From positions 1-64,000 of the IMG/VR virus record IMGVR_UViG_3300027896_000011: a stretch of 64,000 nucleotides of DNA; one strand, written 5' to 3'. Positions 8,309 through 61,227 of the stretch are shown one piece after another (the first letter of the stretch is position 1; the number at the start of each line of letters is the position of its first letter). The stretch is from a virus. The notes under the pieces were generated by a model that searched no databases, was not told the DNA's origin, and was given only the letters and a program-made list of their open reading frames with translations. A program made the position numbers and the translations under genes.

Positions 8309-8310
8309 TT

Positions 8311-13287: not shown

Positions 13288-13625
13288 TCTTCTGGACCGT
13301 CTATAAGAGGGACAGTAGGAACAAATGCTTTACCTAAGTTACCCATTTTCAAAAGGATATTAGTGTGTGGGTCAAAAAGGCATTCGCAGTCTTTACATTT
13401 AAGGAGGAATCTAGGTAGCGGATCTTCTGGAATAAACAAGGTTTTGGGGTTTGCAACCTTAGTGAAAGTGCCCCCTCCACAACGTAAACATTGTCGGCTT
13501 TTATAAAAAGCATCTCGCTTTTCAACAAGGGGGCCGAGAATGTCTTTTTTACCTTCGAGTAGTTTTATCGTTATGCGTGGGTCTGCAGGTTTTAAATCCA
13601 TTGACCTAGAGTACCGTGTCAACAT
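13284..13625 (-). CDS. Small zinc-ribbon protein
   Basis: CLRCGG and CKDCE pairs; fills the gap between two + strand genes. Confidence 0.6.
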   Translation of the reverse strand: MLTRYSRSMDLKPADPRITIKLLEGKKDILGPLVEKRDAFYKSRQCLRCGGGTFTKVANPKTLFIPEDPLPRFLLKCKDCECLFDPHTNILLKMGNLGKAFVPTVPLIDGPED

Positions 13626-13682
13626 ACACTTTGTCGAGGCCTCAATGTGCTTACGAATAACAATTAGGCAGGAATACTAACC

Positions 13683-43450: not shown

Positions 43451-44292
43451 AGCACATTACTGAATTACATTTGGCTGGTATGCTAAGCGAGCTAAAAAAA
43501 GAAGCTGGTGTTGCATCAGATATTGCTTCACGTGGTCTTCAAATGCTTCGCAAGGTACCTACGTTACCACTTGTGAGTAGGATTCCTGGTATAAATTCTA
43601 GAGTAGGACAGACCCTTGCTGGCGGTGCATTAGGTGGTGCTATCGGTGCTGCTACTGGTGAAGAGGGCGATAGACTTCATAGAGGTGTAATGGGTGGGTT
43701 GTTAGGAGCAAGTGCTGTAGGTCTTGGGCACATGGCTACACAGAGTGGTAGAGATGCTGCAAAGAAATCTATGGGGAATTTATGGCAGAGGTCTAAATAC
43801 CAATTTACTGGTAAAGGTCTAGAAGGTACGCCGGAAGCTAGGATATTAAAGGCCAGAGAGATTGGTCTTATTCCTGAAGCAGGTAAAAATAAAGCTGTAG
43901 ATGCTGCACAAGAACATGCATTGAAAAATGATTGGTTATCATTACCTGGTGCGGTACATGGTCTAGTTACTCAACCCGGACAAGTATTAAAGAATTCTTG
44001 GAATAGAATGGATACAATGGGTAAAGGGCTTACTGCTGCAGGTGGAGCGATTACTGCCGCAGATATGATACAAAAGCCAACTCCAGAAGGTCCCGGTAGA
44101 TTAGAAAAGGGATTGGGTGGATTAGCTTCAACTATAGGCTTTACTGCAGGACCTGCAGGTATCTTACCGGGCATGTTGATGGGTAGTTGGGCAGGTAAGG
44201 CAGGACAAAGGGTTGGACGTGTGGGGGATAGATTGTTAGGGTACAACCCTGCAGCTGAGGCAGCGCCTATGTATGAAGGGGCTGTACAATGA
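43447..44292 (+). CDS. Glycine-zipper protein with KEA motif (possible ejection/internal protein)
   Basis: GGALGGAIGAA and GVMGGLLGA; ELKKEA. The ATG overlaps the upstream stop. Confidence 0.55.
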   Translation: MKHITELHLAGMLSELKKEAGVASDIASRGLQMLRKVPTLPLVSRIPGINSRVGQTLAGGALGGAIGAATGEEGDRLHRGVMGGLLGASAVGLGHMATQSGRDAAKKSMGNLWQRSKYQFTGKGLEGTPEARILKAREIGLIPEAGKNKAVDAAQEHALKNDWLSLPGAVHGLVTQPGQVLKNSWNRMDTMGKGLTAAGGAITAADMIQKPTPEGPGRLEKGLGGLASTIGFTAGPAGILPGMLMGSWAGKAGQRVGRVGDRLLGYNPAAEAAPMYEGAVQ

Positions 44293-47200
44293 GTGTAGGT
44301 TTAGGCGGCGCAGATTCCTCTGCACTTCGTTTCTCTAGAACTCGAGGTCGTACTGGAGCTTCTTCTGATTACGGGCTACAGTACCCTAGTCCTTTTTTTG
44401 ATATCGGGCAAACGTATTTACCCGCCACTATTAAACAGATGTTTAGGTGGTGTCGGTATTACTTCTTAGTTAATCCATTGATCAATGCAGTGGTAGCTAA
44501 GATGGCGGATTATCCTGTTACTGATATTATTCTAGATACTGACAAGCCGGATTTAAAAGAAAAGTGGTATCACTTTTTAGATTCACAGCTTAGGTATCGT
44601 CCTTTTCAGATTGAACTAGGACTTGACTTTTATGCCTATGGTAATGCTTTAGTTAGTATCTTTTATCCGTTTATAAAGATGCTTAGGTGTAAACGTTGTG
44701 GGCATGAGAAACCTGCAGCGGATGCTACATATCGATTTCAGAATTTTGAATTCCACTGGGAGTGTTCTAAGTGTAGCCATGCTGATATTGCTACTGTAAG
44801 AGACCATTACGTTAAGGCACCTAAAGGTATACGTCTTTTACGTTGGAACCCGGAAGATATAGATATCAGATATAATGATATTACTGGGGATACGGAATAC
44901 TATTATACGATTCCGGTACAGATCAAAAATGATATTATTATGGGGAAGAAGTCTACTGTAGAGACTATGCCTCAGCTCTTTATCGATGCTTTAAGGCTAA
45001 GAAAAGCCGTAGTGTTTTCTCGAGACAACATCTATCACTTCAAGCGGCCTACATTGGCCGGAAAAGATAGAGGTTGGGGTACTCCTTTAATACTGCCAGT
45101 ACTTAAGGATACCTACTACCTCCAGGTCCTGCGAAAAGCTCAGGAATGTCTTACACTTAGCTCTCTTTTAGAGAGGCCATTTGATCTTTGTAAAGCAAGC
45201 GAGATTAGGATTGGAGACCTAGTAAAGACGCATACAGGAGCGTATAAACGGGTAACAGATATTCGTCCTAAGCTCATAAACGAACAAAACGGTGGTTTTA
45301 CGGTACAAGTAGCTACTAAGGCTATGAAAGCTTTTCCGACCGGTTATTCTGACAATCATCCTCTCTATGTATTGCGGAGAGAAGAATTGGCCACTGGGTG
45401 TAGGGCGAATAAGCACATCAATACTAAGTATGTTCGGCGTTATACAGACGAGTATGCGCCTAAATGGGTAAATGCTGGAGATGTCAAACTTGGTGAGTAC
45501 GTAGTTTATCCTATAGATAGGCTAAAGAACACATCCGGGGAGGTATTGGATATATCACAGTATACTGGATTGCCAGCAACAACAGACTGGGTATATCAGC
45601 AATCATCTAAAGAAACAGTAGATGCGTACGAGGCTCTTGAGCAGGGAGACGAACTTCCGTGGGCTGATAACGCCCAACATGCAGCGCATACCCTTCATAA
45701 TAGGGGAAAGACGCCTCCACGGGTAAAGAGGTATATCTCATTAGACGAAGATCTTGCTTACTTATCCGGGTGGTTCATCGGAGACGGCAGTACAGGTGAC
45801 CGACAAATAAGCATAGCTCTAGGGCTTAAGGACGATTATAAGCTTCTTGCTAAGGCATTTAAAAAGGTATTTGGTAAGGAGCCTAAAATCTCTAAGAGTA
45901 AGAGATTTAATGGTCGTTTACTTGTTCACAGTGATGTGATTGCGACTAAATTTATGCGTGGTTGGATACCTGGTGATGCACACACTAAGAGCCTGCCAAA
46001 AGAAATTCAGCAAGCTCCAGACCAAATATTATTGTCTTTCCTACGAGGATATGTTGAGGCAGATGGGTGCTTTCATAACGACCTTGATCGAGTAACATTT
46101 ACTTCGGTAAGTCCTCAGCTTGCTTATCAAGTATGGAAGCTTCTTATTTCTCTTCGATGTGTGGCTAGGGTATCCAAGAGAAAAGAATCGCAATCAATTA
46201 TTGAGGATAAGCTTGGACGTAGAAACAAGGCTATAAGTGGTGTCTCTTATGATATAGTCTTAGATGGGTCATCTGGACGTAGATTACGTGCGCTTTTGTA
46301 TGGTGGAGAAGTTGAAGACGCAGCCGGAGGGCATACAGGATTTTTTCACGGGGATTATTTTGCCTCTCCTATTTGTAATTGGGAACGCCTAACAGAACAG
46401 CACGTATTGAGTTTTGAAGTAGAAGATGATCATACTTTTTGCACTCCAGGAATGGTGACGCATAACAGCATCGCGCTCGAGCACATTGTGCCGCTACGCG
46501 TCTTATTCCCACAAGCCGGGTCGGCCTCCTCGGACCCATACTGCGTTGCGTTAGATAGCCTTGTAGAGACTCGAGAAGGAATATTTCCTGCTGGGGAAGT
46601 CAAGAAGGGTGACTGGCTAAAGACACATACAGGTGCGTGGAAGCCTGTTGAGGCCGCCGTAGATCGTAAAATTCGTACTGGTGAGAAGGTATACGAATTT
46701 TCTATTGCTTCTCTTAGTGCCTTTCCATTTAAGGTATCTGAGGAGCACCCAATACTCGCTGTAAAGCGGCCCTCAAGATTTAGAGGCTATGAGAGCCTTA
46801 CCGAAGAACCGGACTATATTGAGGCCAAGAATATTGACGAGGGGGACTTTGTTTGTTACCCCAAGCATAGAACCGTTTGGGATAGTCTTGACCTAGATCT
46901 TCACGAGTACTGTCCTGAGCGTGCATTCACTGCTGAGTATATGTACCGTAGGTTAGATCAACAGTCTGCGGACATCTATGAGTACTTTGAGGCTAATGGT
47001 GTGCCTAGCTTTGCTCATGGAGAACGTAAGACCTTCTTGGCCGACAAAGGTTGGACCGAAGATTACTACAATAATGCTAAGGCGGTGTTTAGCCAGCAGG
47101 AAGCTGTTGATAGGATTCCTAGGTATCTGCCAGTTACAAAAGACCTGGCGTACGTAGTAGGTATGTATGCGGCTGAAGGTAGTCAGAAGGATTTAGGTAT

Positions 47201-50200
47201 TTCTTTTAGTCTTAATGCGGCTGAAGATTCCATCATGGGCGCTTTGGACTCTGCGCTACAAGGGATGGGGTTTGCTAGTGGGCACAGATACATACGAGAT
47301 AACTCCGCGCAGTACGATGTTGGTGATGTATTTTTGGGCAGCTTACTGCCTCAGCTGTGTGGCAAAGGTGCCCAAAATAAACGATTACCAAGGTTTATTG
47401 TTGAGGCTCCAGAAGAGATTGCGCTTCGTGCAGTAGAGGCAGTGTTTCTAGGTGATGGTTGTTCAATAAATAGTAAAACTCGTAGAGAAGGATTAAAGAC
47501 TGTCAGCCCTCAGTTAACTATAGACGTGCGTGCCATACTACTTTCTTTTGGTCTAATAGCTAATGTACAAAAGAGTATTCCTGGGGAGCACGAGATAGCT
47601 AAACTTCCGTACTACCAAGTCAATTTAAACGGATCACAGGGAGACGCCTTCGCTAACCTGTGTAGTAGCGGAACGCGTACACACAAAGGATTCAGTAGGT
47701 GTGGGTTTGTTCGTGGTGATTATGTCTATCTGCGGGTAAGTAAAAAATCAGAATCTCCAGATGTCAAAGTAGTACGTGGCTTCCAAATCAAAGGAGATAA
47801 GTCCTTCTGTATTGTTGGCGTAGCTACGCACAATACGAGCGTGAATCTTCAAGATTGGCACGATCAGATCGCAGGAGAATTACGTCGTTGGAGAAGCGAT
47901 AATTCGTATATTCCTATTCTTCCGTTACCTATTGGACAACAGACCATAGGTGGTGATGGTAGAGCTCTGCTTCTTTCACAAGAAATACGAGTATGGAGCG
48001 AACATATTATTGCGGGTATGGGTGTCCCAACGGAGCTCATTTTTGGTGGTCTCTCGTATTGTCAAGCTCCTGATACTCTCTTGTTTACGTCTCACGGTCT
48101 CGAGACATTAGAAGAGCTGACCCCAGCTGAAGAGGGGCAAGGGACATCAAATCGCAAAGTAGTAAGCCATATGGGCGTGAGAGACGTTGTTAGAACGCAT
48201 CACGTAGGTCTTAAAAAGGCAGCGTCGGCAAAAACTAGGCTTGGTCTGGAACTTACTGGAGCGTATACGCACCCCGTGTATGTACTACAGCCAGATTTAA
48301 CTATGGCATTTAAAACTATGGAGGAATTGAAGCCAGGAGATAGAGTGGCTGTAAAAGCGGGAGCTAACCTTTGGCCTAAGGACACACCTAAAATTGACTT
48401 TCATACGACAAAATCTGGAGACCGGTTTGAGGACGTTACTATCCCACAGGAGTTAACTCCAGAATTAGCCAGACTTTTGGGATATTTAATAGCAGAAGGT
48501 TCTTGTACTGAGGCGCGTAGAATTGGCTTTGGAAATTCTGATCAAGAAGTAAATACTGACTTTGCAGATTGCGTAGAGGCTGTGTTTGGATACCGTCCAA
48601 AGTTCCATCTAAATCTAAGTATGCCTGTAACCACCAAACCATTTTATCAGACTGAGATATCAAGGCAGCAGGCAACTGAGTTTCTCTACGCATTAGGTAT
48701 CGGTGGTTATGCTGCTGAAAAAACGGTACCTAGAATTATACGTCTTGCTCCTAAGCATCTTGTAGCAGAGTTTTTACGAGCTTATTTTGAAGGAGATGGC
48801 GGGTCAGAGGACGTAGAAGACAAACAAGCAGTTACCGCCTGTTCAATGTCGGGTAGACTCCTTCAAGAAATACAGCTATTGATGCTGAATATGGGTATTG
48901 TTACTTCTAGGTATTTCCCAAGAGTTAAGTCAACGTTCACACTACAAGCCAGGTCAGAGTATGTAGATATTTTTGCAAAAGAGATTGGGTTTATTTCCAG
49001 CTGTAAAAAAAGAATACTTTCACAGAGAACCCCTACTAGAGGATCTTCTTGTCTATCATCTCAAATTCCATATCTAAAAGAGAGATTAGAGGAGTTTAGA
49101 GATCGTCATTTTGAGAATAGGTCTTCGTGGAAGTTTGAATCTGTAAACGTTGAGTTGCTGCAGGAACAGTATACTGTTGATGAGATTGCAGTACTTACAA
49201 ACAGGGAACGCTCTACTATATTGCTGCACATTAATTCTGGAGCACTTACAGCGGTAAAGCAGCCATCTGTACAAGGTAGATTTGCTGCATATACTGTCAG
49301 TCGTCAAAATTTAGAATATTTTCTTAAACATCATGGTTTAGGTAGACGTAGAACAACACCAAAGAGTTTCTGGGGCATGAGCTATGAGAAGCTAGCTACT
49401 AAAGATCTTTCTTTTATTAAAGAAAAAGAGCCTGATTTTGCTCGGCGTATAGAAAATTTAGCTGAGATGCGTTTAATCTGGGATGAGGTACAGGAAGTAA
49501 ATCTTTTGGATATAGAAATTCCTATGCGTGATTTGACGGTGGATGAGGCTTCTACGTACCAAGGTAACGGTGTAATTAGCCATAATTCCGGATCAAATGT
49601 ATCTTTACGTATGCTTGAGAATATGTTCCTTGGTTATCTTTCCGATCAATTAGCTTTACTTCGTTGGATAATCGAAAAGACTGCCTCATACCTTGGTTGG
49701 GCTAAAGTAGGAGCTAGGTTCAAGCCATTTAAGATGGCAGATGATCTGCAGAGAAAGGCATATCTATTCCAGCTTAATCAAGCCGGAAAGATATCAGATG
49801 AGTCTCTTTGCTCTGATGCTGATTATGATTCATCTAAAGAAGATGCGATCATGGAGAACGAAGCTACTCGTCGCATAGGAGCGATGAAGAAGCAACGATT
49901 GCTTCAAGCAGAGATGGAAGGCGAAGCAGCTATGGTCCAGCAGAAGTGGCAGACCAAAGCACAGAATAAAGCTATGTCAGAACAAATGGCTATTCAAGGA
50001 GAAGCGGCTAAAGATCAAATGGCATTCCAATCTCAGATGCAAAATGGAATGATGCAAGATCAAATGGCTGTTCAAACAGGACAAGAAGCGCCACCTAAAA
50101 CTCCAGATATGATGCCTGCTCCTCGAGACCCATCGTTGTTATCTGTACCTAAGGGGATTACCTCTCCATTAACACTACAAAGTGTTCAACAGCATCCAGT

Positions 50201-50471
50201 TTCTGCGTCTAATGCAGATATAGCTGGTGGGCAAAATGTAGACCTGTTGTTTATGGCTAGAAAATTAGCTGATAAGTTTTCTAGACTTAACCCCGGAGAG
50301 AAACCAGTAATGTTAAGTAGGCTTAAAGAACTTAATCCTATACTGTATTCTACGGTTACAGGGCTAATGATGAGCGGAGGGAATGGACCCACCGCTGCAG
50401 CTCAAGCCTCTGCGAGGCCGTTGCCATTGCAACGAACACCCCGCAGAGGATCTGAAGCTGCTCAAATCTAG
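44289..50471 (+). CDS. Portal protein (~680 aa spliced) with three inteins
   Basis: YYFLVNPLINAVVAKMADYP, YGNALV, IYHFKRP, RGWGTPLILP, IIAGMGVPTELI. Confidence 0.75.
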   Translation: MSVGLGGADSSALRFSRTRGRTGASSDYGLQYPSPFFDIGQTYLPATIKQMFRWCRYYFLVNPLINAVVAKMADYPVTDIILDTDKPDLKEKWYHFLDSQLRYRPFQIELGLDFYAYGNALVSIFYPFIKMLRCKRCGHEKPAADATYRFQNFEFHWECSKCSHADIATVRDHYVKAPKGIRLLRWNPEDIDIRYNDITGDTEYYYTIPVQIKNDIIMGKKSTVETMPQLFIDALRLRKAVVFSRDNIYHFKRPTLAGKDRGWGTPLILPVLKDTYYLQVLRKAQECLTLSSLLERPFDLCKASEIRIGDLVKTHTGAYKRVTDIRPKLINEQNGGFTVQVATKAMKAFPTGYSDNHPLYVLRREELATGCRANKHINTKYVRRYTDEYAPKWVNAGDVKLGEYVVYPIDRLKNTSGEVLDISQYTGLPATTDWVYQQSSKETVDAYEALEQGDELPWADNAQHAAHTLHNRGKTPPRVKRYISLDEDLAYLSGWFIGDGSTGDRQISIALGLKDDYKLLAKAFKKVFGKEPKISKSKRFNGRLLVHSDVIATKFMRGWIPGDAHTKSLPKEIQQAPDQILLSFLRGYVEADGCFHNDLDRVTFTSVSPQLAYQVWKLLISLRCVARVSKRKESQSIIEDKLGRRNKAISGVSYDIVLDGSSGRRLRALLYGGEVEDAAGGHTGFFHGDYFASPICNWERLTEQHVLSFEVEDDHTFCTPGMVTHNSIALEHIVPLRVLFPQAGSASSDPYCVALDSLVETREGIFPAGEVKKGDWLKTHTGAWKPVEAAVDRKIRTGEKVYEFSIASLSAFPFKVSEEHPILAVKRPSRFRGYESLTEEPDYIEAKNIDEGDFVCYPKHRTVWDSLDLDLHEYCPERAFTAEYMYRRLDQQSADIYEYFEANGVPSFAHGERKTFLADKGWTEDYYNNAKAVFSQQEAVDRIPRYLPVTKDLAYVVGMYAAEGSQKDLGISFSLNAAEDSIMGALDSALQGMGFASGHRYIRDNSAQYDVGDVFLGSLLPQLCGKGAQNKRLPRFIVEAPEEIALRAVEAVFLGDGCSINSKTRREGLKTVSPQLTIDVRAILLSFGLIANVQKSIPGEHEIAKLPYYQVNLNGSQGDAFANLCSSGTRTHKGFSRCGFVRGDYVYLRVSKKSESPDVKVVRGFQIKGDKSFCIVGVATHNTSVNLQDWHDQIAGELRRWRSDNSYIPILPLPIGQQTIGGDGRALLLSQEIRVWSEHIIAGMGVPTELIFGGLSYCQAPDTLLFTSHGLETLEELTPAEEGQGTSNRKVVSHMGVRDVVRTHHVGLKKAASAKTRLGLELTGAYTHPVYVLQPDLTMAFKTMEELKPGDRVAVKAGANLWPKDTPKIDFHTTKSGDRFEDVTIPQELTPELARLLGYLIAEGSCTEARRIGFGNSDQEVNTDFADCVEAVFGYRPKFHLNLSMPVTTKPFYQTEISRQQATEFLYALGIGGYAAEKTVPRIIRLAPKHLVAEFLRAYFEGDGGSEDVEDKQAVTACSMSGRLLQEIQLLMLNMGIVTSRYFPRVKSTFTLQARSEYVDIFAKEIGFISSCKKRILSQRTPTRGSSCLSSQIPYLKERLEEFRDRHFENRSSWKFESVNVELLQEQYTVDEIAVLTNRERSTILLHINSGALTAVKQPSVQGRFAAYTVSRQNLEYFLKHHGLGRRRTTPKSFWGMSYEKLATKDLSFIKEKEPDFARRIENLAEMRLIWDEVQEVNLLDIEIPMRDLTVDEASTYQGNGVISHNSGSNVSLRMLENMFLGYLSDQLALLRWIIEKTASYLGWAKVGARFKPFKMADDLQRKAYLFQLNQAGKISDESLCSDADYDSSKEDAIMENEATRRIGAMKKQRLLQAEMEGEAAMVQQKWQTKAQNKAMSEQMAIQGEAAKDQMAFQSQMQNGMMQDQMAVQTGQEAPPKTPDMMPAPRDPSLLSVPKGITSPLTLQSVQQHPVSASNADIAGGQNVDLLFMARKLADKFSRLNPGEKPVMLSRLKELNPILYSTVTGLMMSGGNGPTAAAQASARPLPLQRTPRRGSEAAQI
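45147..46466 (+). mobile_element. Portal intein 1 (440 aa, LAGLIDADG)
   Basis: E|CLT...THN|S; SGWFIGDG, LRGYVEADG. Confidence 0.9.
46542..47834 (+). mobile_element. Portal intein 2 (431 aa, LAGLIDADG)
   Basis: Y|CVA...THN|T; VGMYAAEG, VEAVFLGDG. Confidence 0.9.
48060..49586 (+). mobile_element. Portal intein 3 (509 aa, LAGLIDADG plus extra HTH)
   Basis: Y|CQA...SHN|S; LGYLIAEG, LRAYFEGDG. Confidence 0.9.
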
Positions 50472-51400: not shown

Positions 51401-51448
51401 GGCTTATTAATGAGGCAAATAAGGCCGATAAGAACGCAAAAATAAATA

Positions 51449-51583
51449 TCAATTTTCTTCGTTTCCTTCCTCTTTTTCTTCTTCTTCTTCTTCTTTGTTT
51501 TCGCCTCCAATTTCGTCTTCGAAACGATCTGACAGATCGCTCAAAGAATTCTCACTCTTCTCTTCTTCTTCTTCTGGTCGCAT
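51449..51583 (-). CDS. 44-aa extremely acidic protein
   Basis: MRPEEEEEKSENSLSDLSDRFEDEIGGENKEEEEEEKEEGNEEN; AAGGAGG RBS; promoter upstream. Missed by the ORF track. Confidence 0.6.
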   Translation of the reverse strand: MRPEEEEEKSENSLSDLSDRFEDEIGGENKEEEEEEKEEGNEEN

Positions 51584-51628
51584 AAGTCCTCCTTTTTGTA
51601 GAAGCGAAATACGTTCTTCTACACAATA

Positions 51629-51657
51629 CTTATACCCTTAAGCGTCGTATAATTTCA
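51629..51657 (-). promoter_or_regulatory. Phage-consensus promoter TGAAAT-N17-TATAAG
   Basis: Motif copy divergent from the RNAP gene. Confidence 0.65.
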
Positions 51658-51718
51658 TGCCCATATTCCTGTAATTCTGATACCTTAAGGACAACACACA
51701 TAAACAAGCGAGGAATTC

Positions 51719-54700
51719 TTGGCACGCATTGCACCGGAAGAGGGGTTTGAACTCCTCAAAGACCGAGTACAAAAAGCAGTCAGTGGATTCTTCCCCATAA
51801 TCGGGCGGAAGAATACGCTAGAGCTCCATGATATATCGGTTAAAGATAACCTGAATATCGATGATATTAGGTCCCAGAAACACGCTAAGTTGAGTGGTCG
51901 TTCCTGGACTGTACCAGTAGAGGCAACTATTGCCCTAAAGGACAATACTACTGGGTCGATAATCGATAAACAGAAGATGAACTTGCTTAACCTGCCTAAG
52001 GTTACAAGACGCTATGGCCATATCGTAGATGGCCAGGAGTATCAGATAGATAACCAGTGGCGCTTAAAGCCCGGTATCTATAACATGGTTAAACAAGACG
52101 GAGCTATTGAGTCTCACTTTAATGCGGCAGGAGGCTTTAAGATACATTTTGATCCAAAGTCTCGTCAATTTACATTGAACTATGGTAATTCTAATATGCC
52201 TCTTAGACCCTTCTTACACGCCATGGGGGTGTCTGAAGAGGAAGTAGAAAATCGTTGGGGTAAAGATATCGCTACGGTTAATCATGCTGATAGTTCTAAA
52301 GAACTTATTAAGTTTTATAGAGCATCCACTGGGGATAAGACCGTTAAGCCCACTATAGATGAGGCAAAGTCTCATTTGTGGGATGTAATGCAAAAGACGG
52401 TACTACGTCCGGAAGTAACTAAATTTACTCTAGGTAAAGAATATACAAACGTTACTGGGCATACGCTTTTAGATGCGTCAGATAAATTATTGAAGATATC
52501 TAGAGGCGAAGCGCAGCCAGACCCTAGAGACGCTTTGATGTTTAAAGATCTCCATTCAATTGAAGATTTTGCAGCAGAACGTCTTATTAAAGGTTCTAGA
52601 GAAATTCTTCGTAAAGTAAATAATAATATTGATCGTAAAGATAAAGTACGAGACATCATAGCTCCAGAAATATTTAATCGTCCGATCAAACAGATGTTTG
52701 GAAAGAATTCCTTAGCAATTGTTACTGATCAGACTAACCCGTTAGAGATGTTCTCCGCTAATATGAAGACCACCATTATGGGAGATGGTGGTATTAAATC
52801 AGAGCATACTGTTTCAGATGAGGCGAAACTTATAGATCCGTCTCATTTAGGATTTCTTGATCCAATACACACTCCCGAAGGATGTTACGATTCTGAGACA
52901 GAGGTCTACACAAAGACTGGCTGGAAGAAGTGGATAACCGTAACAGAGCAAGATCAATTAGCTTGTCGAGTAGACGGTAGATTAGAGTTTCACCTCCCTA
53001 CAAATCTGATCAATGCCCCATATAAGGGGAAAATGTATGGGGTAAATACCGCACGAAACAAGCAGCGTAGAAAGAGAGAAATTGATTATTTAGTAACGCC
53101 CAATCATAGAATCTACTGTCGTACTAGAGACCTCAGGGGAAAGGCCCTATTTCGTATAGAGACCGCAGACGTGGTGCACGGTAAAGCTAGAGACTTAGAA
53201 CTTGGGCATGACCCGTATCTAGGTTCCAAAGAAACGGGCGTATTTCATTTGCCTTACGTAAAGGGAAACAACTCTTCAAAGAACGTAGACGAGATCAACA
53301 TAGGTGACTGGGCTCAATTTATAGGGTGGTTCCTGTCTGAGGGGAATTGCACGTATGATGATGTAGGTTCCCACTATAGTGTCTGTATTTCACAGAGTAT
53401 AGTTACGTCTAGAACTAACTGCGAAATTATTGAGGCGCTGCTCGATAGGTTACCCTTTGCTTGGAGTTTTTCTGAAAGAGAAGATGGTAAACGCACCTAT
53501 CGGGTAAGTACAAAGCAGCTAGCGCATTATGTCTCTCAGTTTGGACTTAGTTACAATAAGTCCATACCAGAGTACTTTTTCGAATGTTCTGTGGAAACAC
53601 GAGAATATTTATTAGAAGCACTGCTGTTGGGGGATGGCAGGAAAAACTCACATAGGGCTACTGGCGCATCTTATAAACAGCTAGTATACTGCACAGTTAG
53701 TCCACAACTCGCTCTAGATGTGGAGCGCTTAGCAATAAGCTTGGGGCGTCCCGTATCTATGTGCCGGTATGCAGATGACCGAGAAGAGCGATATAGAGAC
53801 GTTTATGAGGTACGTTTACTGTGTCAAACAAAACGAGAAATTCAAGGCGCTAAAGGACACTTTTATACCTCTGAGTACGACGGCACTATTCACTGTGCAA
53901 CTGTTCCAGGAGGGCTACTGTACGTACGCAGGGGAACGGGGTTAGCACACTGGAGCGGTAATAGCGCCACAGGTATCACACTGCGTTTACCTTTAGGTGT
54001 ACATAAAATAGGGCATGATGTTGCTATTAAAATGTACAATACAAAAACTGGAAAAGTTGAAAACGTCAATCCTACTGTCGCTTATAAATCTCATATAGCT
54101 CTGCCAGATCAAATTACTTGGGAGGGCAATAAACCTAAAGCTGCTGGTAAAGTTGTAAAAATTAGTGGGCCGGGTAATGAAATATATGATGGTACGTTAA
54201 AAGATGCTGATTATGTAATGAAGAGTCCGATGCAGATGTTTTCCATCTCATCTAACATGATTCCTTTCATGCCGTCAGATCACCCTAATCGTAGTACCAT
54301 GGCCGGAAGACAGATGGAACAGGCTATCTCTCTAAAACATAGAGAAATCCCCTTAGTACAAAGCTTGGCCGGTAAAGAAAGTTTTGATCGTATACTTGGA
54401 AGCTTTGCCAGTCATAGCGCAACTGTTAGTGGTACAGTATCAAAGATAAAACCAGACGCTATAGTAATTAAGAGACCTAACGGTACTAAGGAAGAAGTGT
54501 TCATTTATGATCACTTTCCACTTAATGAAAATAAAGCGTTTATGCATGCAGAGCCTTTAGTAAAGGTCGGAGATAAAGTAACTAAAGGGCAAGTTATAGC
54601 TGATACAAATTACACTAAAGATGGCGTATTAGCTATAGGTACTAATTTACGTACAGGGTTTATGCCTTATAAAGGATATAACTTTGACGATGGTATTGTA

Positions 54701-57700
54701 GTCAGTGAGAGTGCAGCTCAAAAATTAACCAGTGAACATCTTCATAGACATTCATTAGAACGAGATGTATCTCACATTTTGGATAAGAAGAAATTTACGG
54801 CTTATATGCCTACTGTACTGAATAAAACTCAGTACGATAAATTAGATGAAGAAGGCGTAATCAAACCAGGCACTGTCGTAATGCCGGGAGATACTCTAAT
54901 AGCAGCATTACGTGCTTCAAATAATCCGGAACGTAAAGAAGATTTAGAACTTTCAAAGTTACATAAGTCTATTGTTAAACCATATAAAGACTCGAGTATT
55001 AAGTGGGAAAGCGATTACCCAGGAGTAGTTAAAGAAGTAGTTAAGATTGGTAAGAATGTTTCTGTACACGTAAAAACTGAAGAAGCCTTAGACATCGGAG
55101 ATAAGCTCTGTTACGACGAAAAGCACGAACTATTGACTACTCGTGGATGGGTTCCGGTAAAGGACGTAAAGGTATCTGATGAGGTGTGTTCACTCAACCC
55201 GGAGACTGACGCGATAGAGTACCTGTGCCCGGAGAAGACAGTCAGCTATGATTGTGTAGAGGATGATCTGTACGTCTTGGAGACTACACAAGTGTCTATG
55301 GCTGTCACCATGGAGCACAAAACATATGCAAAGCCTAGGGGAGCGGATAGGCACAGCCTAATTCCAGTCTCTCAGTTAGTAGGTAAGCGTTATCATTTAA
55401 AGCAGCACGGTAAATGGGTGGGGGAAGACAGAGAGACATTTGAGTTCCCCTCTATGGTAGTCAAGGCTGGGCAGAGTGGTAATGGTACCAGAGTGCTGCC
55501 ATCAATACAGATGCCGATGGACACATTCTTAATGCTTCTAGGAATGTACTTGTCGGAGGGCAACAATTATGGTGGTAACGGCGACTACTACATAGAAATC
55601 ACTCAAATAAAGCAACCAGGAAGAGCTCAGACAGAGGAGGCTCTGGCATTAGCAGGAATACGTTTTACGCGTACTCCTGAAAAGATACGCATACACGGTA
55701 AGCAGCTGTATGAGTATTTCGTGCAGTTTGGGCATGCGGTAAATAAATTTATTCCTGATTGGATTTTTCAGCTTCCGAAAAAACGGTTACAGGTTCTGTA
55801 TAAATGGTTAATGTGGGGGGATGGCTGTGAAAAAGGAACCACACACGTATACACCACTATATCCCCTCAGCTAGCCGATGATGTACAGCGTTTAGTTTTC
55901 CATCTTGGTAAGGCAGGCAGAGTGGTGTGGGAGCCTGGTTATCGTGGCCAGATAGAGGGCAGGTATTACGATTTTAAGCCTAGATATAGAGTTAGGGTAA
56001 TACGCACTAAATTAGAGCCCACAATAAATCACGGGCACTCTAATTCACAAGGCGGACAAAAAGAAACTATAGAGAAGTACACCGGTAAGGTGTACTGCGT
56101 GGCTCTTCCACGTAATCACGTACTCTACACACGTCGAAATGGTAAATGCCACTGGTCTGGTAATACGGCGCGCCACGGCAATAAAGGCATAGTGACACGG
56201 ATCATACCTGATCATGACATGCCCCATACTAAAGATGGTAAGCATTTAGAGGTGTTGTTAAACCCGTTAAGTGTTATGGGTAGAACTAACTTAGGTCAAG
56301 TATTAGAGGTTGCTGCAGCCAAAGTGGCGGAGAAGACTGGTAAACCTTATATGGTTAAGAACTTTTCTCCGAATACAGATTTACATGCCCAAGTCACTGC
56401 TGACTTAGCCAAGCACGGTTTGACGGATAAAGAAGAAGTTATAGACCCCGTTACAAATAGAGTAATGGGTAATGTGCTTGTAGGACCTATGCACATTTTT
56501 AAGCTCCACCATCAGGTGGAAAAGAAGCTTAGTGCTCGAGCAGGTGGTTATGGGTATGACTACGATAAAGATATGATTCCTAAAGGTGGTGGCCCACGAG
56601 GAGCCAAGTCTCTCGGAACACTAGGCCTTTATTCTATGCTGGCGCATGGAGCGACATCTAATCTGCGGGAAATGCAGACTTATAAAAGCGATGCGTCACA
56701 AGGTGATCAATTCTGGTCTGCTCTCCAAGCTGGAGAGATGCTTCCTACTCCTAAGCCGACCTTTGCTTACAATAAATTTCTTGGGTACATCAGAGGACTT
56801 GGTGTAAATGTTCAGAAAACAGGTAATAACCTTACGCTTATGCCTATGACTGACAAGCAGATCATAGAACAAAGCAATGGTGAGATTACCGACCCCGCTA
56901 AGTCAGTCACAGCTAAAAATATGAAGCCTGAAATAGGGGGATTATTTGATCCTAAAGTTACAGGTGGTATTGATGGTACAAAATGGGGCTTTTACACACT
57001 CCCAGAATCTATGCCTAACCCCGTATTCGAAAGTGCTATTACTCGTTTGTTGGGAATGAAGCAAAAAGAGTTTGCAGGCTTAATTGGTGGTACGTTAGCA
57101 GTAGACCCAAAAACCGGAAAGATAGGAGATTCTCAAAAAATTGAGGGAGGGCTGGTTGGTGGTAAAGCCTTTGCTCATATGCTTAGTAAAATAGATGTGA
57201 AAAAGGATTTAGCTGCTGCCAAAGTAGCGCTAGATAAACCGACATTAAGAGGGACGTATCTTGATCATGCTAATAGTAAAGTAAAACTACTAGAGGCTTT
57301 AAACAAGGTTGGTATGACGCCAGTAGAAGCGTACATGTCTAAAGTCATTCCTATATTACCGCCATCTATGCGACCTGTTCCAGTGTTGCCTAATGGTACT
57401 ATTAGTGAAGAAGATTTGAACGGTCTTTATAAGAATCTTCATTTGTCTGCGTCTAGATACGCGAAGATGTCTCCATTGATTCCAGAAGATGATCAATCTA
57501 AAGTAGAGATTCGACAAGAAGTCTATGATGGTTTACGAGCAATAGCTGGACTTGGTGGTTACCCACATCAAATTCGTAGAGGAATCTTAGACTACATACA
57601 TGGTAAGAAGATGGACACTCGTACGGATGCTAAGATAGGTTCTCCTAAAGAAGGATTCTTTCAAGATAAATTGGTTGAACGTAAGCAAGATATGTCTATG

Positions 57701-60025
57701 CGTGGAACTATTATCCCTGAACCATCTTTAGGTCTGGATGAAGTAGGTCTCCCAAGAGAAGCAGCGATTGAAGTATATAAGCCATTTGTAATTCGTGAAT
57801 TACGAAATCTATTGGGAATACCGCCTTTACAGGCGCAAAAAAAATTGGCGGAAGGTGGGGAGATAGTAGACCGTGCTTTACAAAAAGTTATATCTACTAG
57901 GCCTATTTTGCTTAAACGTGATCCGGTACTACATAAGTACGGGGTACAAGCGTTTAAGCCACGTATAGTTGGTGGTAAAGCTGTACAGGTTCACCCTCTA
58001 GTTACCAGTGGTTTTAACGCAGACTTTGATGGCGATGCAATGGGTGCTTTCGTACCTGTAAGTATGGATGCTGTAGCAGAAGCATATAAAATGCTTCCAT
58101 CTAGGAACCTATTCAGTCCGTCTAGCGGGGAGATCATGTATGCTCCCACTAACGAGAGCAGATTAGGTCTATATGGTATTACTCAGACTGGTAAAGATAC
58201 TAATCATAAGTTCACTAATATGCAGGACTTAGAGACTGCTATTAGAACAGGCGCAGTAACCTTTACAGATCAAGTAACCGTTGGCGGTATTAAATCAAGC
58301 GCTGGTAAGTTTATGGTTGCTGGAGCCCTTCCAGAAACTATGCGTAGAGAAATATTAGAACGAAAAACACCTCTAGATAAAAAAGCACAAGAAGAACTCT
58401 TTACTCAAGTAGCTAGAGAACACAAGAATGATTATGGTGAAGTAGCTAATAAGCTAAAAGATCTGGGCAATAAGTGGGCTACAGACACTGCCTTCTCTTT
58501 CGGTATGACAGATATTGCGCCGGAACGACAAGTAAGAGATAGGATTCTTGCTGCTGCAGATGCTCAAGTTCATAAACTCACTGGGGCAAATAAAGATAGT
58601 AAAAAGATAGACATATACTCCAAGGCAACGGAGGAAATGAATAAGCATTTGAAGGCAACTCCTGAAAGCCAAAACAACATTATGATTCTACATAATGTGG
58701 GCATGAAAGGAGGCACGGATACTTTGAGACAAATACGTGCTACTCCTATGCTTATGAGTAATCATAAAGGAGAAATCCTCCCTAATCCTATCCGCAAATC
58801 TTATGCCGAAGGATTGGATGTTGCAGACTACTGGACGGCTATTAGTGGTGGTCGTAAAGGTATTATTCAGAAAGTTCAATCTGTTGCCGAACCTGGTTAT
58901 ATCAGCAAACAGGTAATGAACTCTGTTATGAATAACCTTATCTTAGATCATGATTGTGGTACTGATAAAGGCATCTCTTTGCCGGTAGATGAAAAAGATA
59001 TTTTAGGTAGATTTACTGCTGCGGATATTAATGTAGGCGGACATGTAATAAAATCTGGTGCATTAATTACCCCAGAAATGCGTAGTACGCTACGTAATAA
59101 TAATATTGGTAAAGTAGTAGTCAGGTCTCCTTTGCGTTGTTTACATGGTCCTGGTCTTTGCCAGAAATGCAACGGATTAACGGAGAATGGAGAATTACCA
59201 GCAAAAGGTTTGAACGTAGGTGTATTAGCTGGTCAAGCATTAGGAGAACGTAGCGTACAGTTGGCTATGAAGGCTTTCCATAGTGGAGGTAGCGCTGCTT
59301 CAAGGAGTGGTTTAGTTGATGATTTTGAACGTGTAAAAAATCTACTATCATTCCCGAAAATACTTCCTGGTTCTGCTACGCTTAGTGAGTTGAATGGTAA
59401 GGTAACAAAAATAGCTCCCTCACCTGCTGGTGGTCATGAAGTAAGCATAGAAGACAAAGTACACTATATTCCTCACGCGTTAGGGGCTCCTGTATACAAT
59501 GGACAACCTTTAAAAGTTGGTACGGAAGTAAAAAAGGGGAGTCCTATCTCTAACGGATTGATAAACCCTCATGAGATGTTAACGCTTACAGGAGTAGAGC
59601 CAGTACAACTTCATCTCGCTAGTGAGCTAAGTAATGCTTATGCAGATTCCGGAATCCGTAGAAGAAATCATGAAATTGTAGTTAAAGCACTAACTAATCT
59701 CACTAAGGTCAAAGACCCTGGCTCTTCATCCGGACTTATCCGTGGTGATTTTGCTTCTACAACATATGTATCTAACATTAATAGAAACATGCCAAAAGGC
59801 TCTAGACCTATAGTACATGAGCCCATACTTAAAGGCGTTAATGTGCTACCTTTGGAAATGCAAGAAGACTGGATTGCAAAACTTAATCATGAGAATCTAT
59901 CGGAAACCATTATAGATGCAGCTCAAAGAGGATGGACTAGTAGCTTACATGGACTACATCCTATTCCAGCTGTAATTTATGGAGCTGAGATTGGATTACC
60001 CGGTAAAGGAAAGGTCGGATATTAA
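51719..60025 (+). CDS. rpoBC: Single-chain beta-beta' fused DNA-directed RNA polymerase (~2056 aa spliced) with two inteins
   Basis: Beta motifs DQTNPL, TPEG, GYNFDDG, GDKL|TARHGNKG, KLHHQVEKKLSAR. Beta' motifs PILPPSMRP, RDPVLH, catalytic NADFDGD (58016-58036), GRKG, VRSPLRC, QLAMKAFH. Confidence 0.95.
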   Translation: MARIAPEEGFELLKDRVQKAVSGFFPIIGRKNTLELHDISVKDNLNIDDIRSQKHAKLSGRSWTVPVEATIALKDNTTGSIIDKQKMNLLNLPKVTRRYGHIVDGQEYQIDNQWRLKPGIYNMVKQDGAIESHFNAAGGFKIHFDPKSRQFTLNYGNSNMPLRPFLHAMGVSEEEVENRWGKDIATVNHADSSKELIKFYRASTGDKTVKPTIDEAKSHLWDVMQKTVLRPEVTKFTLGKEYTNVTGHTLLDASDKLLKISRGEAQPDPRDALMFKDLHSIEDFAAERLIKGSREILRKVNNNIDRKDKVRDIIAPEIFNRPIKQMFGKNSLAIVTDQTNPLEMFSANMKTTIMGDGGIKSEHTVSDEAKLIDPSHLGFLDPIHTPEGCYDSETEVYTKTGWKKWITVTEQDQLACRVDGRLEFHLPTNLINAPYKGKMYGVNTARNKQRRKREIDYLVTPNHRIYCRTRDLRGKALFRIETADVVHGKARDLELGHDPYLGSKETGVFHLPYVKGNNSSKNVDEINIGDWAQFIGWFLSEGNCTYDDVGSHYSVCISQSIVTSRTNCEIIEALLDRLPFAWSFSEREDGKRTYRVSTKQLAHYVSQFGLSYNKSIPEYFFECSVETREYLLEALLLGDGRKNSHRATGASYKQLVYCTVSPQLALDVERLAISLGRPVSMCRYADDREERYRDVYEVRLLCQTKREIQGAKGHFYTSEYDGTIHCATVPGGLLYVRRGTGLAHWSGNSATGITLRLPLGVHKIGHDVAIKMYNTKTGKVENVNPTVAYKSHIALPDQITWEGNKPKAAGKVVKISGPGNEIYDGTLKDADYVMKSPMQMFSISSNMIPFMPSDHPNRSTMAGRQMEQAISLKHREIPLVQSLAGKESFDRILGSFASHSATVSGTVSKIKPDAIVIKRPNGTKEEVFIYDHFPLNENKAFMHAEPLVKVGDKVTKGQVIADTNYTKDGVLAIGTNLRTGFMPYKGYNFDDGIVVSESAAQKLTSEHLHRHSLERDVSHILDKKKFTAYMPTVLNKTQYDKLDEEGVIKPGTVVMPGDTLIAALRASNNPERKEDLELSKLHKSIVKPYKDSSIKWESDYPGVVKEVVKIGKNVSVHVKTEEALDIGDKLCYDEKHELLTTRGWVPVKDVKVSDEVCSLNPETDAIEYLCPEKTVSYDCVEDDLYVLETTQVSMAVTMEHKTYAKPRGADRHSLIPVSQLVGKRYHLKQHGKWVGEDRETFEFPSMVVKAGQSGNGTRVLPSIQMPMDTFLMLLGMYLSEGNNYGGNGDYYIEITQIKQPGRAQTEEALALAGIRFTRTPEKIRIHGKQLYEYFVQFGHAVNKFIPDWIFQLPKKRLQVLYKWLMWGDGCEKGTTHVYTTISPQLADDVQRLVFHLGKAGRVVWEPGYRGQIEGRYYDFKPRYRVRVIRTKLEPTINHGHSNSQGGQKETIEKYTGKVYCVALPRNHVLYTRRNGKCHWSGNTARHGNKGIVTRIIPDHDMPHTKDGKHLEVLLNPLSVMGRTNLGQVLEVAAAKVAEKTGKPYMVKNFSPNTDLHAQVTADLAKHGLTDKEEVIDPVTNRVMGNVLVGPMHIFKLHHQVEKKLSARAGGYGYDYDKDMIPKGGGPRGAKSLGTLGLYSMLAHGATSNLREMQTYKSDASQGDQFWSALQAGEMLPTPKPTFAYNKFLGYIRGLGVNVQKTGNNLTLMPMTDKQIIEQSNGEITDPAKSVTAKNMKPEIGGLFDPKVTGGIDGTKWGFYTLPESMPNPVFESAITRLLGMKQKEFAGLIGGTLAVDPKTGKIGDSQKIEGGLVGGKAFAHMLSKIDVKKDLAAAKVALDKPTLRGTYLDHANSKVKLLEALNKVGMTPVEAYMSKVIPILPPSMRPVPVLPNGTISEEDLNGLYKNLHLSASRYAKMSPLIPEDDQSKVEIRQEVYDGLRAIAGLGGYPHQIRRGILDYIHGKKMDTRTDAKIGSPKEGFFQDKLVERKQDMSMRGTIIPEPSLGLDEVGLPREAAIEVYKPFVIRELRNLLGIPPLQAQKKLAEGGEIVDRALQKVISTRPILLKRDPVLHKYGVQAFKPRIVGGKAVQVHPLVTSGFNADFDGDAMGAFVPVSMDAVAEAYKMLPSRNLFSPSSGEIMYAPTNESRLGLYGITQTGKDTNHKFTNMQDLETAIRTGAVTFTDQVTVGGIKSSAGKFMVAGALPETMRREILERKTPLDKKAQEELFTQVAREHKNDYGEVANKLKDLGNKWATDTAFSFGMTDIAPERQVRDRILAAADAQVHKLTGANKDSKKIDIYSKATEEMNKHLKATPESQNNIMILHNVGMKGGTDTLRQIRATPMLMSNHKGEILPNPIRKSYAEGLDVADYWTAISGGRKGIIQKVQSVAEPGYISKQVMNSVMNNLILDHDCGTDKGISLPVDEKDILGRFTAADINVGGHVIKSGALITPEMRSTLRNNNIGKVVVRSPLRCLHGPGLCQKCNGLTENGELPAKGLNVGVLAGQALGERSVQLAMKAFHSGGSAASRSGLVDDFERVKNLLSFPKILPGSATLSELNGKVTKIAPSPAGGHEVSIEDKVHYIPHALGAPVYNGQPLKVGTEVKKGSPISNGLINPHEMLTLTGVEPVQLHLASELSNAYADSGIRRRNHEIVVKALTNLTKVKDPGSSSGLIRGDFASTTYVSNINRNMPKGSRPIVHEPILKGVNVLPLEMQEDWIAKLNHENLSETIIDAAQRGWTSSLHGLHPIPAVIYGAEIGLPGKGKVGY
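52883..53962 (+). mobile_element. RNAP intein A (360 aa, LAGLIDADG)
   Basis: TPEG|CYD...VTPNH...WSGN|S; IGWFLSEG, LEALLLGDG. Confidence 0.9.
55109..56164 (+). mobile_element. RNAP intein B (352 aa, LAGLIDADG)
   Basis: GDKL|CYD...VTMEH...WSGN|T; LGMYLSEG, LMWGDG. Confidence 0.9.
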
Positions 60026-61227
60026 TGGGGTCAACGTTTCATAACTCTGTAACAACTACCGGAAACAGAGCTCCAAGACTTGAAACAGGTATAGTGTCTA
60101 GCGTCAACCCACAGAACATGACACTAGATTGGGTGGCCCAACATACCGGAAAACAACAAGCTGGGGTTCAAATTATGACCCCTTATATTCATTATAATAA
60201 CGGCGAGGGCTTTACCTGTTTGCCAGAGCCAGGTGCTGTTTGTGTTTTATGTTGGCCCTCAGATGAAGAATCTCCCTTTGTTATGGGGTTTATTACCCCA
60301 CCAGAATCGGCCCCAGCTAATGCCGGTAGTACAGATAAAAGTGCTTCTCCACCTGTAGTTAAAACTGCTTCATCTACTGGAGCTGCAACACCAGCATTAT
60401 CAGACGCTAGCTATAGGTGCAATAGACCTGTCTTGAATCCAGGAGATATGCTGTGGCAAGGTAGAGATGAGAATTTTATAGCTTTGCGTAGGGGTGGTGT
60501 TCTTCAGATAGGTTCTACCAACATTTGTCAACGGGTGTATATTCCTGTTGGAAATTATATTAGAGATTTTTGTGAAAATTGGGAGGTGAATACTGCTGCA
60601 GGTTCTATGAGCTGGGTAGTGCACCCTTCTGAAAGTACCCCGGAAAGTAATGCTCCTACAGAATTCTCTCTTATAGTCAGAGAATATGCTCAAGATAAAA
60701 TGGCCTCTATTAAGGTAAGTGTAGGTTCTTTATTCAATGAACCTAAGTTGCCTAGCGGAGTAGATTCTTTTTTAGAGATTATTATTGCTCCAGATAACAT
60801 TGATCCAAAAGATGGAACTGTATCGAGTCCCTTGTACACACTACGTATAGGTAAAGATGGTAGTACTGAAACAATTCAGGCTGATCGAAAAGTAACTATC
60901 AACGGTAAAGATAATCTAGACGTTGAAGGAGATCAAACTATCTATGTAAAAGGGGATAGAGCATTGACTGTAGATGGCGCAATTACAGAAGCAGTCAAAG
61001 GTGCATATAGCATCACCGGAGAAAAAGGAAGTGCAGAGATTTGGCATGAGGTTAAGTCAATAGATGCTGCTGCCGTGAAACTAGGTTCAGCAAGCGCTTC
61101 CGAGCCAGCTGTTCTTGGATTACAATTATTAAATTGGCTCGCAACGCATACGCATGTGCCTAATGGACCACCTACAAGTTCCCCCACATTATCTAGTATT
61201 CTTGCCAAGAAAACTTATGTAGCGTAA
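60025..61227 (+). CDS. Baseplate central spike (gp5/gpV/VgrG-like)
   Basis: OB-fold GIVSSVNP...LPEPGAVCVL; beta-helix repeats INGKDNLDVEGDQTIYVKGD; C-terminal THTH metal site. Confidence 0.75.
   Translation: MGSTFHNSVTTTGNRAPRLETGIVSSVNPQNMTLDWVAQHTGKQQAGVQIMTPYIHYNNGEGFTCLPEPGAVCVLCWPSDEESPFVMGFITPPESAPANAGSTDKSASPPVVKTASSTGAATPALSDASYRCNRPVLNPGDMLWQGRDENFIALRRGGVLQIGSTNICQRVYIPVGNYIRDFCENWEVNTAAGSMSWVVHPSESTPESNAPTEFSLIVREYAQDKMASIKVSVGSLFNEPKLPSGVDSFLEIIIAPDNIDPKDGTVSSPLYTLRIGKDGSTETIQADRKVTINGKDNLDVEGDQTIYVKGDRALTVDGAITEAVKGAYSITGEKGSAEIWHEVKSIDAAAVKLGSASASEPAVLGLQLLNWLATHTHVPNGPPTSSPTLSSILAKKTYVA

Follow-up and report, generated by a model that had tools for sequence, protein, structure and literature searches.

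The 64,000-nucleotide stretch of viral DNA analyzed here (the window, positions 1-64,000 of the 167,997-bp IMG/VR record IMGVR_UViG_3300027896_000011, which has an IMG/VR completeness estimate of 89%) carries one open reading frame (ORF) that joins beta and beta', the two large subunits of a bacterial-type RNA polymerase (RNAP), in a single chain. Our analysis supports the conclusion that this ORF encodes a genuine single-chain and reduced beta-beta' RNAP without the beta' Zn ribbon. We put at roughly 0.7 the probability that the protein is the phage's own DNA-dependent RNAP core, which would be dependent on a sigma factor, probably independent of alpha, and probably packaged in the virion. 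The enzyme belongs to a very large and apparently undescribed family carried by large tailed phages; no description of a fused, sigma-linked RNAP family was found in the literature searched, the coverage of which leaves out most subscription journals.

Domain order of the fused RNAP

The RNAP gene is one uninterrupted frame of 2768 codons, and its Pfam domains run in the order beta Rpb2_3 and Rpb2_6, then beta' Rpb1_1, 2, 3, and 5. An earlier note, made from the letters of the window alone, had described a single ORF with ordered beta and beta' motifs and about 2056 amino acids (aa) after intein removal; the domain order bears this out, and the spliced length is 2056 aa, with intein boundaries that are exact against an intein-free homologue. 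The end of beta (...GVNVQKTG) is joined directly to the start of beta' (NNLTLMPMTDKQI...), with no linker in between. Solved bacterial beta' chains in the PDB match the C-terminal 1286 aa with E values of about 1e-99 and cover the whole beta' part. Only one locus in the genome matches PF00562, indicating a single RNAP set. Translation is predicted to begin at a TTG codon four bases past a GAGGA sequence, and both elements are unchanged in four relatives, although the rest of their upstream DNA is conserved at only 70%. The coordinates of these and all other features are collected in Table 1.

Table 1 Features of the RNAP gene and its surroundings. Positions are those of the window unless a cell says otherwise.
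Feature	Position	Strand	Remarks
Portal gene, 2060 aa, intein-broken	44289..50471	+	Three extein pieces match Arash gp204 as homologues; conserved upstream neighbor
Promoter-like -10 element GGTATAAG	51629..51636	-	ATGAAA 18 nt upstream; faces away from RNAP gene
Translation start of RNAP gene: GAGGA ribosome-binding site, TTG codon	51705..51721	+	Both invariant in four relatives
Fused beta-beta' RNAP precursor	51719..60025	+	One ORF of 2768 codons with two inteins; 2056 aa after splicing
Beta N-terminal extein, aa 1-388	51719..52882	+	Ends ...DPIHTPEG
Intein 1, aa 389-748	52883..53962	+	Cys1, TPNH block B, C-terminal Asn (...SGN|S), +1 Ser749
Beta middle extein, aa 749-1130	53963..55108	+	Flap and flap-tip helix; ends ...IGDKL
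Intein 2, aa 1131-1482	55109..56164	+	Cys1, TMEH block B, C-terminal Asn (...SGN|T), +1 Thr1483
Beta C-terminal extein, aa 1483-1702	56165..56824	+	RHGNKG to beta end (...GVNVQKTG)
Beta' part, aa 1703-2768	56825..60022	+	Begins NNLTLMPMTDKQI...
Deletion site of beta' N-terminal Zn ribbon, GGLFDPKVTGGIDGTKWGFYTL	56936..57001	+	In place of residues 64-95 of E. coli beta' (with Cys70/72/85/88)
Beta' clamp helices, aa 1887-1934	57377..57520	+	Canonical docking site for sigma region 2; from alignment to E. coli beta' 255-345 and interface in sigma/beta' model
Catalytic NADFDGD motif, aa 2100-2106	58016..58036	+	Aligned to E. coli
gp5/gpV-like central spike gene	60025..61227	+	ATG overlaps RNAP stop, TAATG at 60023-60027
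Conserved downstream ORF, 695 aa	61476..63563	+	Same gene string; no assigned function
Sigma70-family gene, 254 aa	Contig 163568-164332 (L003:1258-2022), outside window		Sigma70_r3 30 bits, above Pfam cut-off

Two inteins in active-site motifs

Both inteins are inserted in highly conserved active-site motifs, intein 1 at PIHTPEG|S and intein 2 at GDKL|TARHGNKG, where it divides the GDK..RHGNKG motif. They have the features of Class 1 inteins with a LAGLIDADG homing endonuclease, including two LAGLIDADG-like motifs each (FLSEGN/LLLGDG and YLSEGN/LMWGDG); the database matches to LAGLIDADG and intein proteins are weak, and the usual penultimate His is replaced by Gly in both. In a homologue that is 81% identical (L006/P0004), both inteins are missing precisely between these boundaries, and the +1 residues, Ser and Thr here, differ in intein-free relatives. 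Splicing of both inteins is predicted, and both would have to leave the precursor after translation to give the 2056-aa enzyme. Intein 2 is absent from most relatives and has a 73% identical copy at the same site in the orthologue L022 (IMGVR_UViG_3300041809_000868, 4127-14914), a 3596-aa protein with four inteins. The intein load varies across the family, from none in L006 through two in the beta' C-terminal part (beta'C) of L013 to the four of L022.

Parts kept and parts lost relative to the E. coli enzyme

The spliced protein was aligned with 17 intein-free family members, the proteins of Arash (a cultured phage of Salmonella with a related RNAP), and E. coli beta plus beta'. With approximate boundaries, the regions missing from beta are residues 1-37, the lineage-specific inserts SI1 (221-357) and SI2 (932-1035), and 1126-1194, and those missing from beta' are 14-31, 64-95, 127-151, SI3 (~943-1136), ~1142-1193, and the C-terminal tail. 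The loss of beta' 64-95 corresponds to the N-terminal Zn finger, whose absence had already been read from the window: GGLFDPKVTGGIDGTKWGFYTL stands in its place, and the deletion, which comprises 32 aa and leaves no Cys, is common to 17 of 17 aligned family members and Arash. Likewise, none of 84 long representatives has more than one Cys after its GGLFD motif. The suggestion that the protein is much shorter than its cellular counterparts holds only in part. Most of the difference from E. coli lies in SI1, SI2, and SI3, whereas the beta' half, at about 1066 aa, is still roughly 100-140 aa below the smallest solved bacterial beta' chains (1161-1207 aa). Judged by this alignment, the Zn-ribbon loss is a real departure, and much of the other streamlining amounts to the lack of inserts specific to the E. 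coli lineage.

The elements retained include the two double-psi beta-barrels, the NADFDGD motif, the counterparts of beta K1065 and K1073 in GDK...RHGNKG, the bridge helix (E. coli beta' 769-805), the trigger loop with its conserved His (925-945), and the second Zn site with four Cys (808-900). The sigma docking elements, namely the clamp helices and the flap-tip helix, are kept as well, whereas other surface elements have been lost. In the rifampicin pocket, the positions of E. coli beta Q513, H526, S531, and I572 are occupied by I, A, T, and T, from which, together with general knowledge of resistance mutations, we predict that the fused RNAP is probably insensitive to rifampicin.

A large family outside the bacterial clade

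A word-indexed search limited to proteins of 1522-4844 aa listed at least 120 clusters at 90% identity, nearly all of about 2050 aa or longer, the longer ones having intein domains that bring them up to 3990 aa. An exhaustive HMMER search with the beta' half against 1.84 billion proteins (representatives of 50%-identity clusters) gave 3116 matches below 1e-30. The best 150 representatives (E ≤ 8e-177) all matched via their beta' part, and 114 of these 150 have a length of 1900 aa or more and a beta' part that starts no earlier than about residue 1000. A pattern-based tally of beta motifs, positive in 49 of these 114, was discarded as overly strict and prone to disturbance by inteins. The 80 IMG/VR loci compared comprise about 55 with full fusion, about 16 that encode beta plus the beta' N-terminal part (beta'N) with a separate beta'C, and a few that are split otherwise. 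Far from rare, the fully fused form is the commonest layout of a very large metagenomic family. A close relative is deposited in GenBank under the label "rpoB ... [uncultured Caudovirales phage]". As side observations on protein length, 69 of the best 150 representatives exceed 2200 aa, and the family members P0058 and P0150 reach 3990 and 4739 aa with an extreme intein load.

Across 79 bacterial sequences from about ten phyla, the identity of the beta'N region to any one of them does not exceed 33%; the bacterial sequences are at least 52% identical to one another. In an unrooted maximum-likelihood tree (quick search, LG+G4) of 57 rows, none of them archaeal, eukaryotic, of the phiKZ type, or from the mReC (Caudovirales that encode a multi-subunit RNAP), the bacterial rows group together in a single tight clade (100% support), the sole exception being the contig L185, and the phage lineage lies across a 100%-supported branch. 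The window RNAP falls into a supported group, 25 rows in size, in which almost every RNAP is fused; split forms of the Arash type make up groups of their own.

A recent capture from a host, which the earlier note had named as one outcome that would speak against its reading, is not seen, and on these comparisons the fused RNAP is not such a capture. We accordingly consider it extremely improbable that a host rpoB-rpoC copy, recently captured or in decay, or a chimera made in assembly accounts for the gene. Although some contigs classed as viral do hold near-bacterial rpoBC genes, the frame here stays open over 8.3 kb, a second contig of 187 kb encodes the identical protein, the layout recurs in hundreds of diverged relatives, and no catalytic motif is disrupted. 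Within the reach of sequence analysis, these points, along with the low identity and the position outside the bacterial clade, refute the capture or chimera.

Two rows of the tree deserve separate mention. L185 (IMGVR_UViG_3300029491_000146) is a "viral" contig with separate rpoB- and rpoC-like genes, whose beta' nests in Lachnospiraceae; it represents either contamination with cellular DNA or a capture that is truly recent. L182 (IMGVR_UViG_3300031722_000008) encodes a fused 2329-aa viral RNAP on a long branch, sister to all bacteria and apart from the other phages; this placement may be a long-branch artifact or a second lineage.

A probable sigma70-family partner in the same genome

No alpha, omega, or sigma gene had been seen in the window. 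This is correct for the window, but the rest of the contig carries a sigma70-family gene. In addition to its Sigma70_r3 match, the 254-aa ORF matches RpoD/SigA-family models with an E value of 1e-15, and regions 2 and 4 are recognizable by eye. Homologues are found in four of five related records, including Arash gp10, down to 32% identity; the exception is a 64%-complete fragment. A model of the complex between sigma and beta' aa 1713-2200 scored 0.71, and the best of three controls scored 0.00. A score of 0.71 is reached by 58 of 80 solved complexes and by 2 of 110 mismatched pairs, counts that are rough since the alignments were our own. Between runs, at least 67% of contacts agree, the predicted local distance difference test score (pLDDT) of the partner is at least 68, and the modeled interface places the clamp helices against sigma residues 68-87. 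Since the two proteins are a textbook pair, this result may reflect only their likeness to solved holoenzymes. Activity without sigma, envisaged in the earlier note, is unlikely in view of the sigma70-family gene in the same genome, its recurrence with the RNAP in relatives, and the retained docking elements.

The phage sigma could instead redirect the host RNAP, as the sigma-like factors of T4 and SPO1 do, while the fused enzyme works without sigma or with a different specificity factor. Precedents exist on both counts, in that many large phages without an RNAP encode sigma factors acting on the host core (PMC7824862) and the AR9 enzyme employs a non-sigma specificity subunit (PMC7598289); moreover, the complex model cannot separate the phage core from a host core. 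Yet sigma recurs with a fused or split RNAP in the related records, its docking elements were kept while other surface elements were lost, and RNAP and sigma were detected together in Arash particles. The motif GGTATAAG, described below, is also the same in this phage and in Arash, and the host of this phage need not be Salmonella. We therefore regard redirection of the host enzyme as quite improbable and favor the fused RNAP as the partner of the phage sigma.

In the region 2.3-like stretch of sigma, where primary sigmas carry a Trp-Trp dyad, this phage has STFLTGQMRQ and its relatives THIRHQLKK. The -10 melting chemistry of the phage sigma may differ.

Absence of recognizable alpha and omega

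The Pfam models for alpha and omega (PF01000, PF01193, and PF01192) have no match in the 168-kb record even at E ≤ 1, whereas the controls were positive in 14 of 14 genomes. One may still ask whether the fused chain needs an alpha-like platform, and perhaps omega, supplied by the host or by a phage gene that has diverged beyond recognition, in which case the core would not consist of one chain. Alpha is the assembly platform of cellular RNAPs (PMC7598289), and most of the phage ORFs near the RNAP gene have no family match. However, phiKZ/AR9-type RNAPs of the same fold work without alpha and omega (PMC7598289), and covalent fusion of beta to beta' may take over one job of alpha. On balance, a requirement for alpha appears unlikely, and we favor a core that assembles as one chain.

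A promoter-like motif shared with Arash

The sequence GGTATAAG occurs 28 times in the 168-kb contig against 6.2 occurrences expected from an order-3 Markov model, and 20 of the 28 sites lie within the 12% of the genome that is non-coding. Many are located 10-100 nt ahead of a same-strand start, with TGMAA about 17-18 nt upstream of the motif. In a k-mer screen of 84 upstream regions, it was the sole enriched word besides Shine-Dalgarno sequences, and the screen returned no second promoter class. The genes behind it are replication-type, small, and non-structural. Arash (OQ632216.1), whose RNAP and sigma are about 32% identical to those of this phage, has 31 GGTATAAG sites, 30 of them on one strand, compared with 5 for a control pattern, and by annotation five of these sites lie 28-48 nt upstream of gp197c, gp202c, gp203c, gp211c, and gp214c. 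That phages with the same sigma and RNAP have the same promoter word fits recognition by the phage holoenzyme.

The GGTATAAG site at 51629-51636 (minus strand) likely serves the small minus-strand ORFs between the portal and RNAP genes and belongs to the candidate target class of the phage sigma-RNAP. The first gene behind it, diverging from the RNAP gene, is an extremely acidic 44-aa ORF (51449-51583, minus strand; MRPEEEEEK...EEEEEEKEEGNEEN) that could be a small early protein. A scan of 51400-51718 for a consensus sigma70 promoter of the RNAP gene returned no match. The conserved TATAAT at 51647-51652 was considered as such a promoter and rejected, as the GGTATAAG promoter on the opposite strand has its -35 region (ATGAAA) there and accounts for it. 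Another conserved block, TTCTGRTACCTT, has no further copy elsewhere and was dismissed as a recurring signal. The other enriched 8-mers were also discarded, being collagen-like coding repeats: Gly-X-Gln repeats (GNQGNQ...) in tail-fibre-like ORFs at 41400-42587 (plus strand) of the window and at 165.8-168.0 kb of the contig, outside the window, account for several of the genome's most over-represented 8-mers.

Position among virion genes and possible packaging

The RNAP gene lies in a string composed of orf42599, orf43390, the portal gene, small minus-strand ORFs, the RNAP gene, the spike-like ORF, and orf61476, which is kept down to about 40% identity. In relatives of 37-85% identity, the RNAP gene is located between the portal and spike genes, and the order portal then RNAP is also found in Arash and Vibrio phage D69. 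The portal gene itself is broken by inteins: its extein pieces span approximately aa 35-298, 1189-1264, and 1771-1881, Pfam reports LAGLIDADG_3 twice and Intein_splicing, and the portal proteins of relatives are intein-free and about 650 aa long. The spike gene starts on the RNAP stop codon, as had been pointed out, and this TAATG overlap suggests coupled translation. Its product was assigned from Pfam matches across the family (gp5 C-terminal models in six of eight members and the gpV OB domain in two); an AlphaFold model from an eight-row alignment had a mean pLDDT of 42 and was set aside as unusable. The two ORFs downstream of the RNAP gene gave no match in a comparison with cultured phages. 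Between the portal and RNAP genes, a Cys-rich ORF of 184 aa (50846-51400, minus strand) with many CxxC pairs has relatives of 27-65% identity and no Pfam or PHROG match.

In virion mass spectrometry of Arash, the RNAP protein gp206 had the most spectra of all proteins, and gp216 and the sigma gp10 were detected as well (PMC10585845). By analogy, packaging of the RNAP in the virion is plausible here. The competing explanation is a non-virion polymerase made during infection, which transcribes middle or late genes and is left out of the particle, so that its adjacency to portal and spike genes is mere gene order. The Arash preparation held many clearly non-structural enzymes, and the RNAP peptides in it are possibly carry-over (PMC10585845). 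By our own reading, the length-normalized spectral counts of the RNAP come near those of the major capsid protein and would imply an implausible number of copies per particle, and with a single RNAP set, late transcription may fall to the same enzyme. On the other hand, the place between portal and spike genes is conserved in relatives and cultured kin, the RNAP and sigma genes both lie within structural blocks, and neither has a GGTATAAG promoter, the motif that precedes replication-type genes. Taken together, a non-virion role seems somewhat unlikely, and we prefer a packaged enzyme.

Proposed mode of action and its weight

Our reading of this phage may be put as a series of steps. The core would bind the 254-aa sigma70-family factor via its clamp helices and flap tip, and this holoenzyme would probably initiate at phage promoters of the form RTGMAA-N17/18-GGTATAAG. 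The fused chain may dispense with the alpha dimer and omega. The RNAP may be produced late with the virion genes, packed together with sigma, and injected, allowing early transcription that is independent of the host. In its fullest form, the proposal is a self-sufficient two-protein holoenzyme of a 2056-aa chain and a 254-aa sigma, without alpha, omega, and the Zn ribbon, that is packed in the virion and injected, drives rifampicin-insensitive early transcription at RTGMAA-N17/18-GGTATAAG, and is shared by hundreds of uncultured phages as well as Arash and Vibrio phage D69. We offer this full version tentatively, as a possibility that falls short of an even chance.

Several points weigh against our interpretation, which for this phage is computational throughout. 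The absence of alpha and omega depends on Pfam models and on a record estimated as 89% complete, and a very divergent alpha or an alpha supplied by the host is possible. As stated above, the complex model gives no indication of which core, phage or host, sigma would prefer. The Arash "virion" list comprises 116 proteins, ribonucleotide reductases among them, and its authors allow for carry-over of infection proteins (PMC10585845). As for the promoter, nearer relatives hold fewer GGTATAAG sites (3-6 in stretches of 108-137 kb; one fragment of 76 kb has none), the motif is not found ahead of the RNAP, sigma, or virion genes, and no promoter was found for the RNAP and sigma genes. Its assignment to the phage holoenzyme rather than to the host RNAP is a matter of interpretation.

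Significance

Bacterial-type RNAPs are thought to require the alpha dimer for assembly. The alpha-less phage RNAPs known to us are fragmented and do not use sigma. If our reading is true, no simpler sigma-dependent multisubunit polymerase than this fused and trimmed core with its sigma70-type factor would be known, and its compactness would suit it to structural and mechanistic studies and to orthogonal gene expression. It illustrates which components of the bacterial RNAP a virus is able to do without, namely the Zn ribbon, alpha, omega, and lineage-specific inserts, and it adds a branch to the debate on the age of viral RNA polymerases. With a large family and cultured relatives at hand, assembly without alpha, the promoter code, packaging, and repeated fusion and fission at one site become directly testable.

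Comparison with known RNAP systems

Natural rpoB-rpoC fusions occur in Helicobacteraceae and Wolbachia, as reportedly described by Zakharova et al. (1999) and Lane & Darst (2010), and these fused enzymes have alpha, omega, and the Zn ribbon. As in the phage protein, the C terminus of beta is joined to the N terminus of beta' in one polypeptide (PMC7483510), but they are ordinary full-size cellular enzymes. Because the phage RNAP lies outside the bacterial clade, its fusion is unrelated by descent to theirs.

The nearest described relatives are the RNAPs of Arash (gp206 plus gp216, with sigma gp10) and of Vibrio phages D69, D148, and D181, which are homologous over their full length at 25-42% identity. 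The Arash lineage shares with the window RNAP the direct joining of beta to beta', the Zn-ribbon deletion at the same place, the portal gene just upstream, an orthologous sigma, and the strong enrichment of GGTATAAG. However, the Arash and Vibrio chains are cut after the catalytic barrel, giving in Arash a beta plus beta'N protein of 1525 aa and a beta'C protein of 606 aa, encoded about 5 kb apart, whereas the window RNAP is all one chain with two inteins. The Arash split maps to aa 2189|2190 of the window protein, which is continuous there. The Arash paper annotates the subunits only, without discussion of architecture or promoters (PMC10585845).

The mReC are uncultured tailed phages (Weinheimer & Aylward 2020, PMC7481178) whose beta and beta', like those of the window, are recognizable by cellular profiles and branch outside Bacteria. 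In many of the entries compared, they also have a similarly reduced size, with a beta of about 1000 aa and a beta' of about 900-1000 aa. In contrast, beta and beta' are always separate proteins in the parts of the dataset compared, and the paper mentions fusion for crAssphage only and makes no mention of sigma or inteins (PMC7481178). The window family, placed in a tree drawn without mReC sequences, may yet fall within the mReC. In the part of Supplementary Dataset 2 compared, several mReC contigs list two beta/beta' sets, of about 1364 + 1005 aa and about 1011 + 904 aa (PMC7481178), which suggests that such phages carry two polymerases each, unlike the single set here.

The RNAPs of the phiKZ/AR9 type are likewise phage relatives of beta and beta' that work without alpha and omega, and one of their sets is packaged in the virion (PMC7598289, PMC7824862). 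They consist of 4-5 polypeptides, come in two sets (virion and non-virion), and have no sigma homologue (PMC7598289, PMC7824862); the AR9 enzyme uses gp226 and reads the template strand (PMC7598289). The window phage differs by having one chain, one set, and a sigma70-family partner, and the contrast with these split enzymes that the earlier note drew is confirmed by the single ORF and the single PF00562 locus as against 4-5 chains (PMC7598289). Among other phage markers, the T4-type major capsid protein (PF07068) and the T7-type RNAP (PF00940) gave no match in the record, and the control genomes were silent too.

Finally, the crAss-like gp66, YonO, and the tape-measure-fused RNAP of P23-45 resemble the window RNAP in having both catalytic barrels in one polypeptide. 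The crAss enzyme is delivered with the virion (PMC7481178), as is that of P23-45 (PMC10770324). These enzymes are too diverged for beta/beta' profiles (PMC7481178), and sigma is not described in the parts of the cited sources covered, whereas the window RNAP has strong Pfam beta/beta' scores, matches solved beta' chains at an E value of 1e-99, and keeps the sigma docking elements. Overall, phage-encoded beta/beta' RNAPs and natural rpoB-rpoC fusions are already known, and what appears new here is the fused, sigma-linked form.

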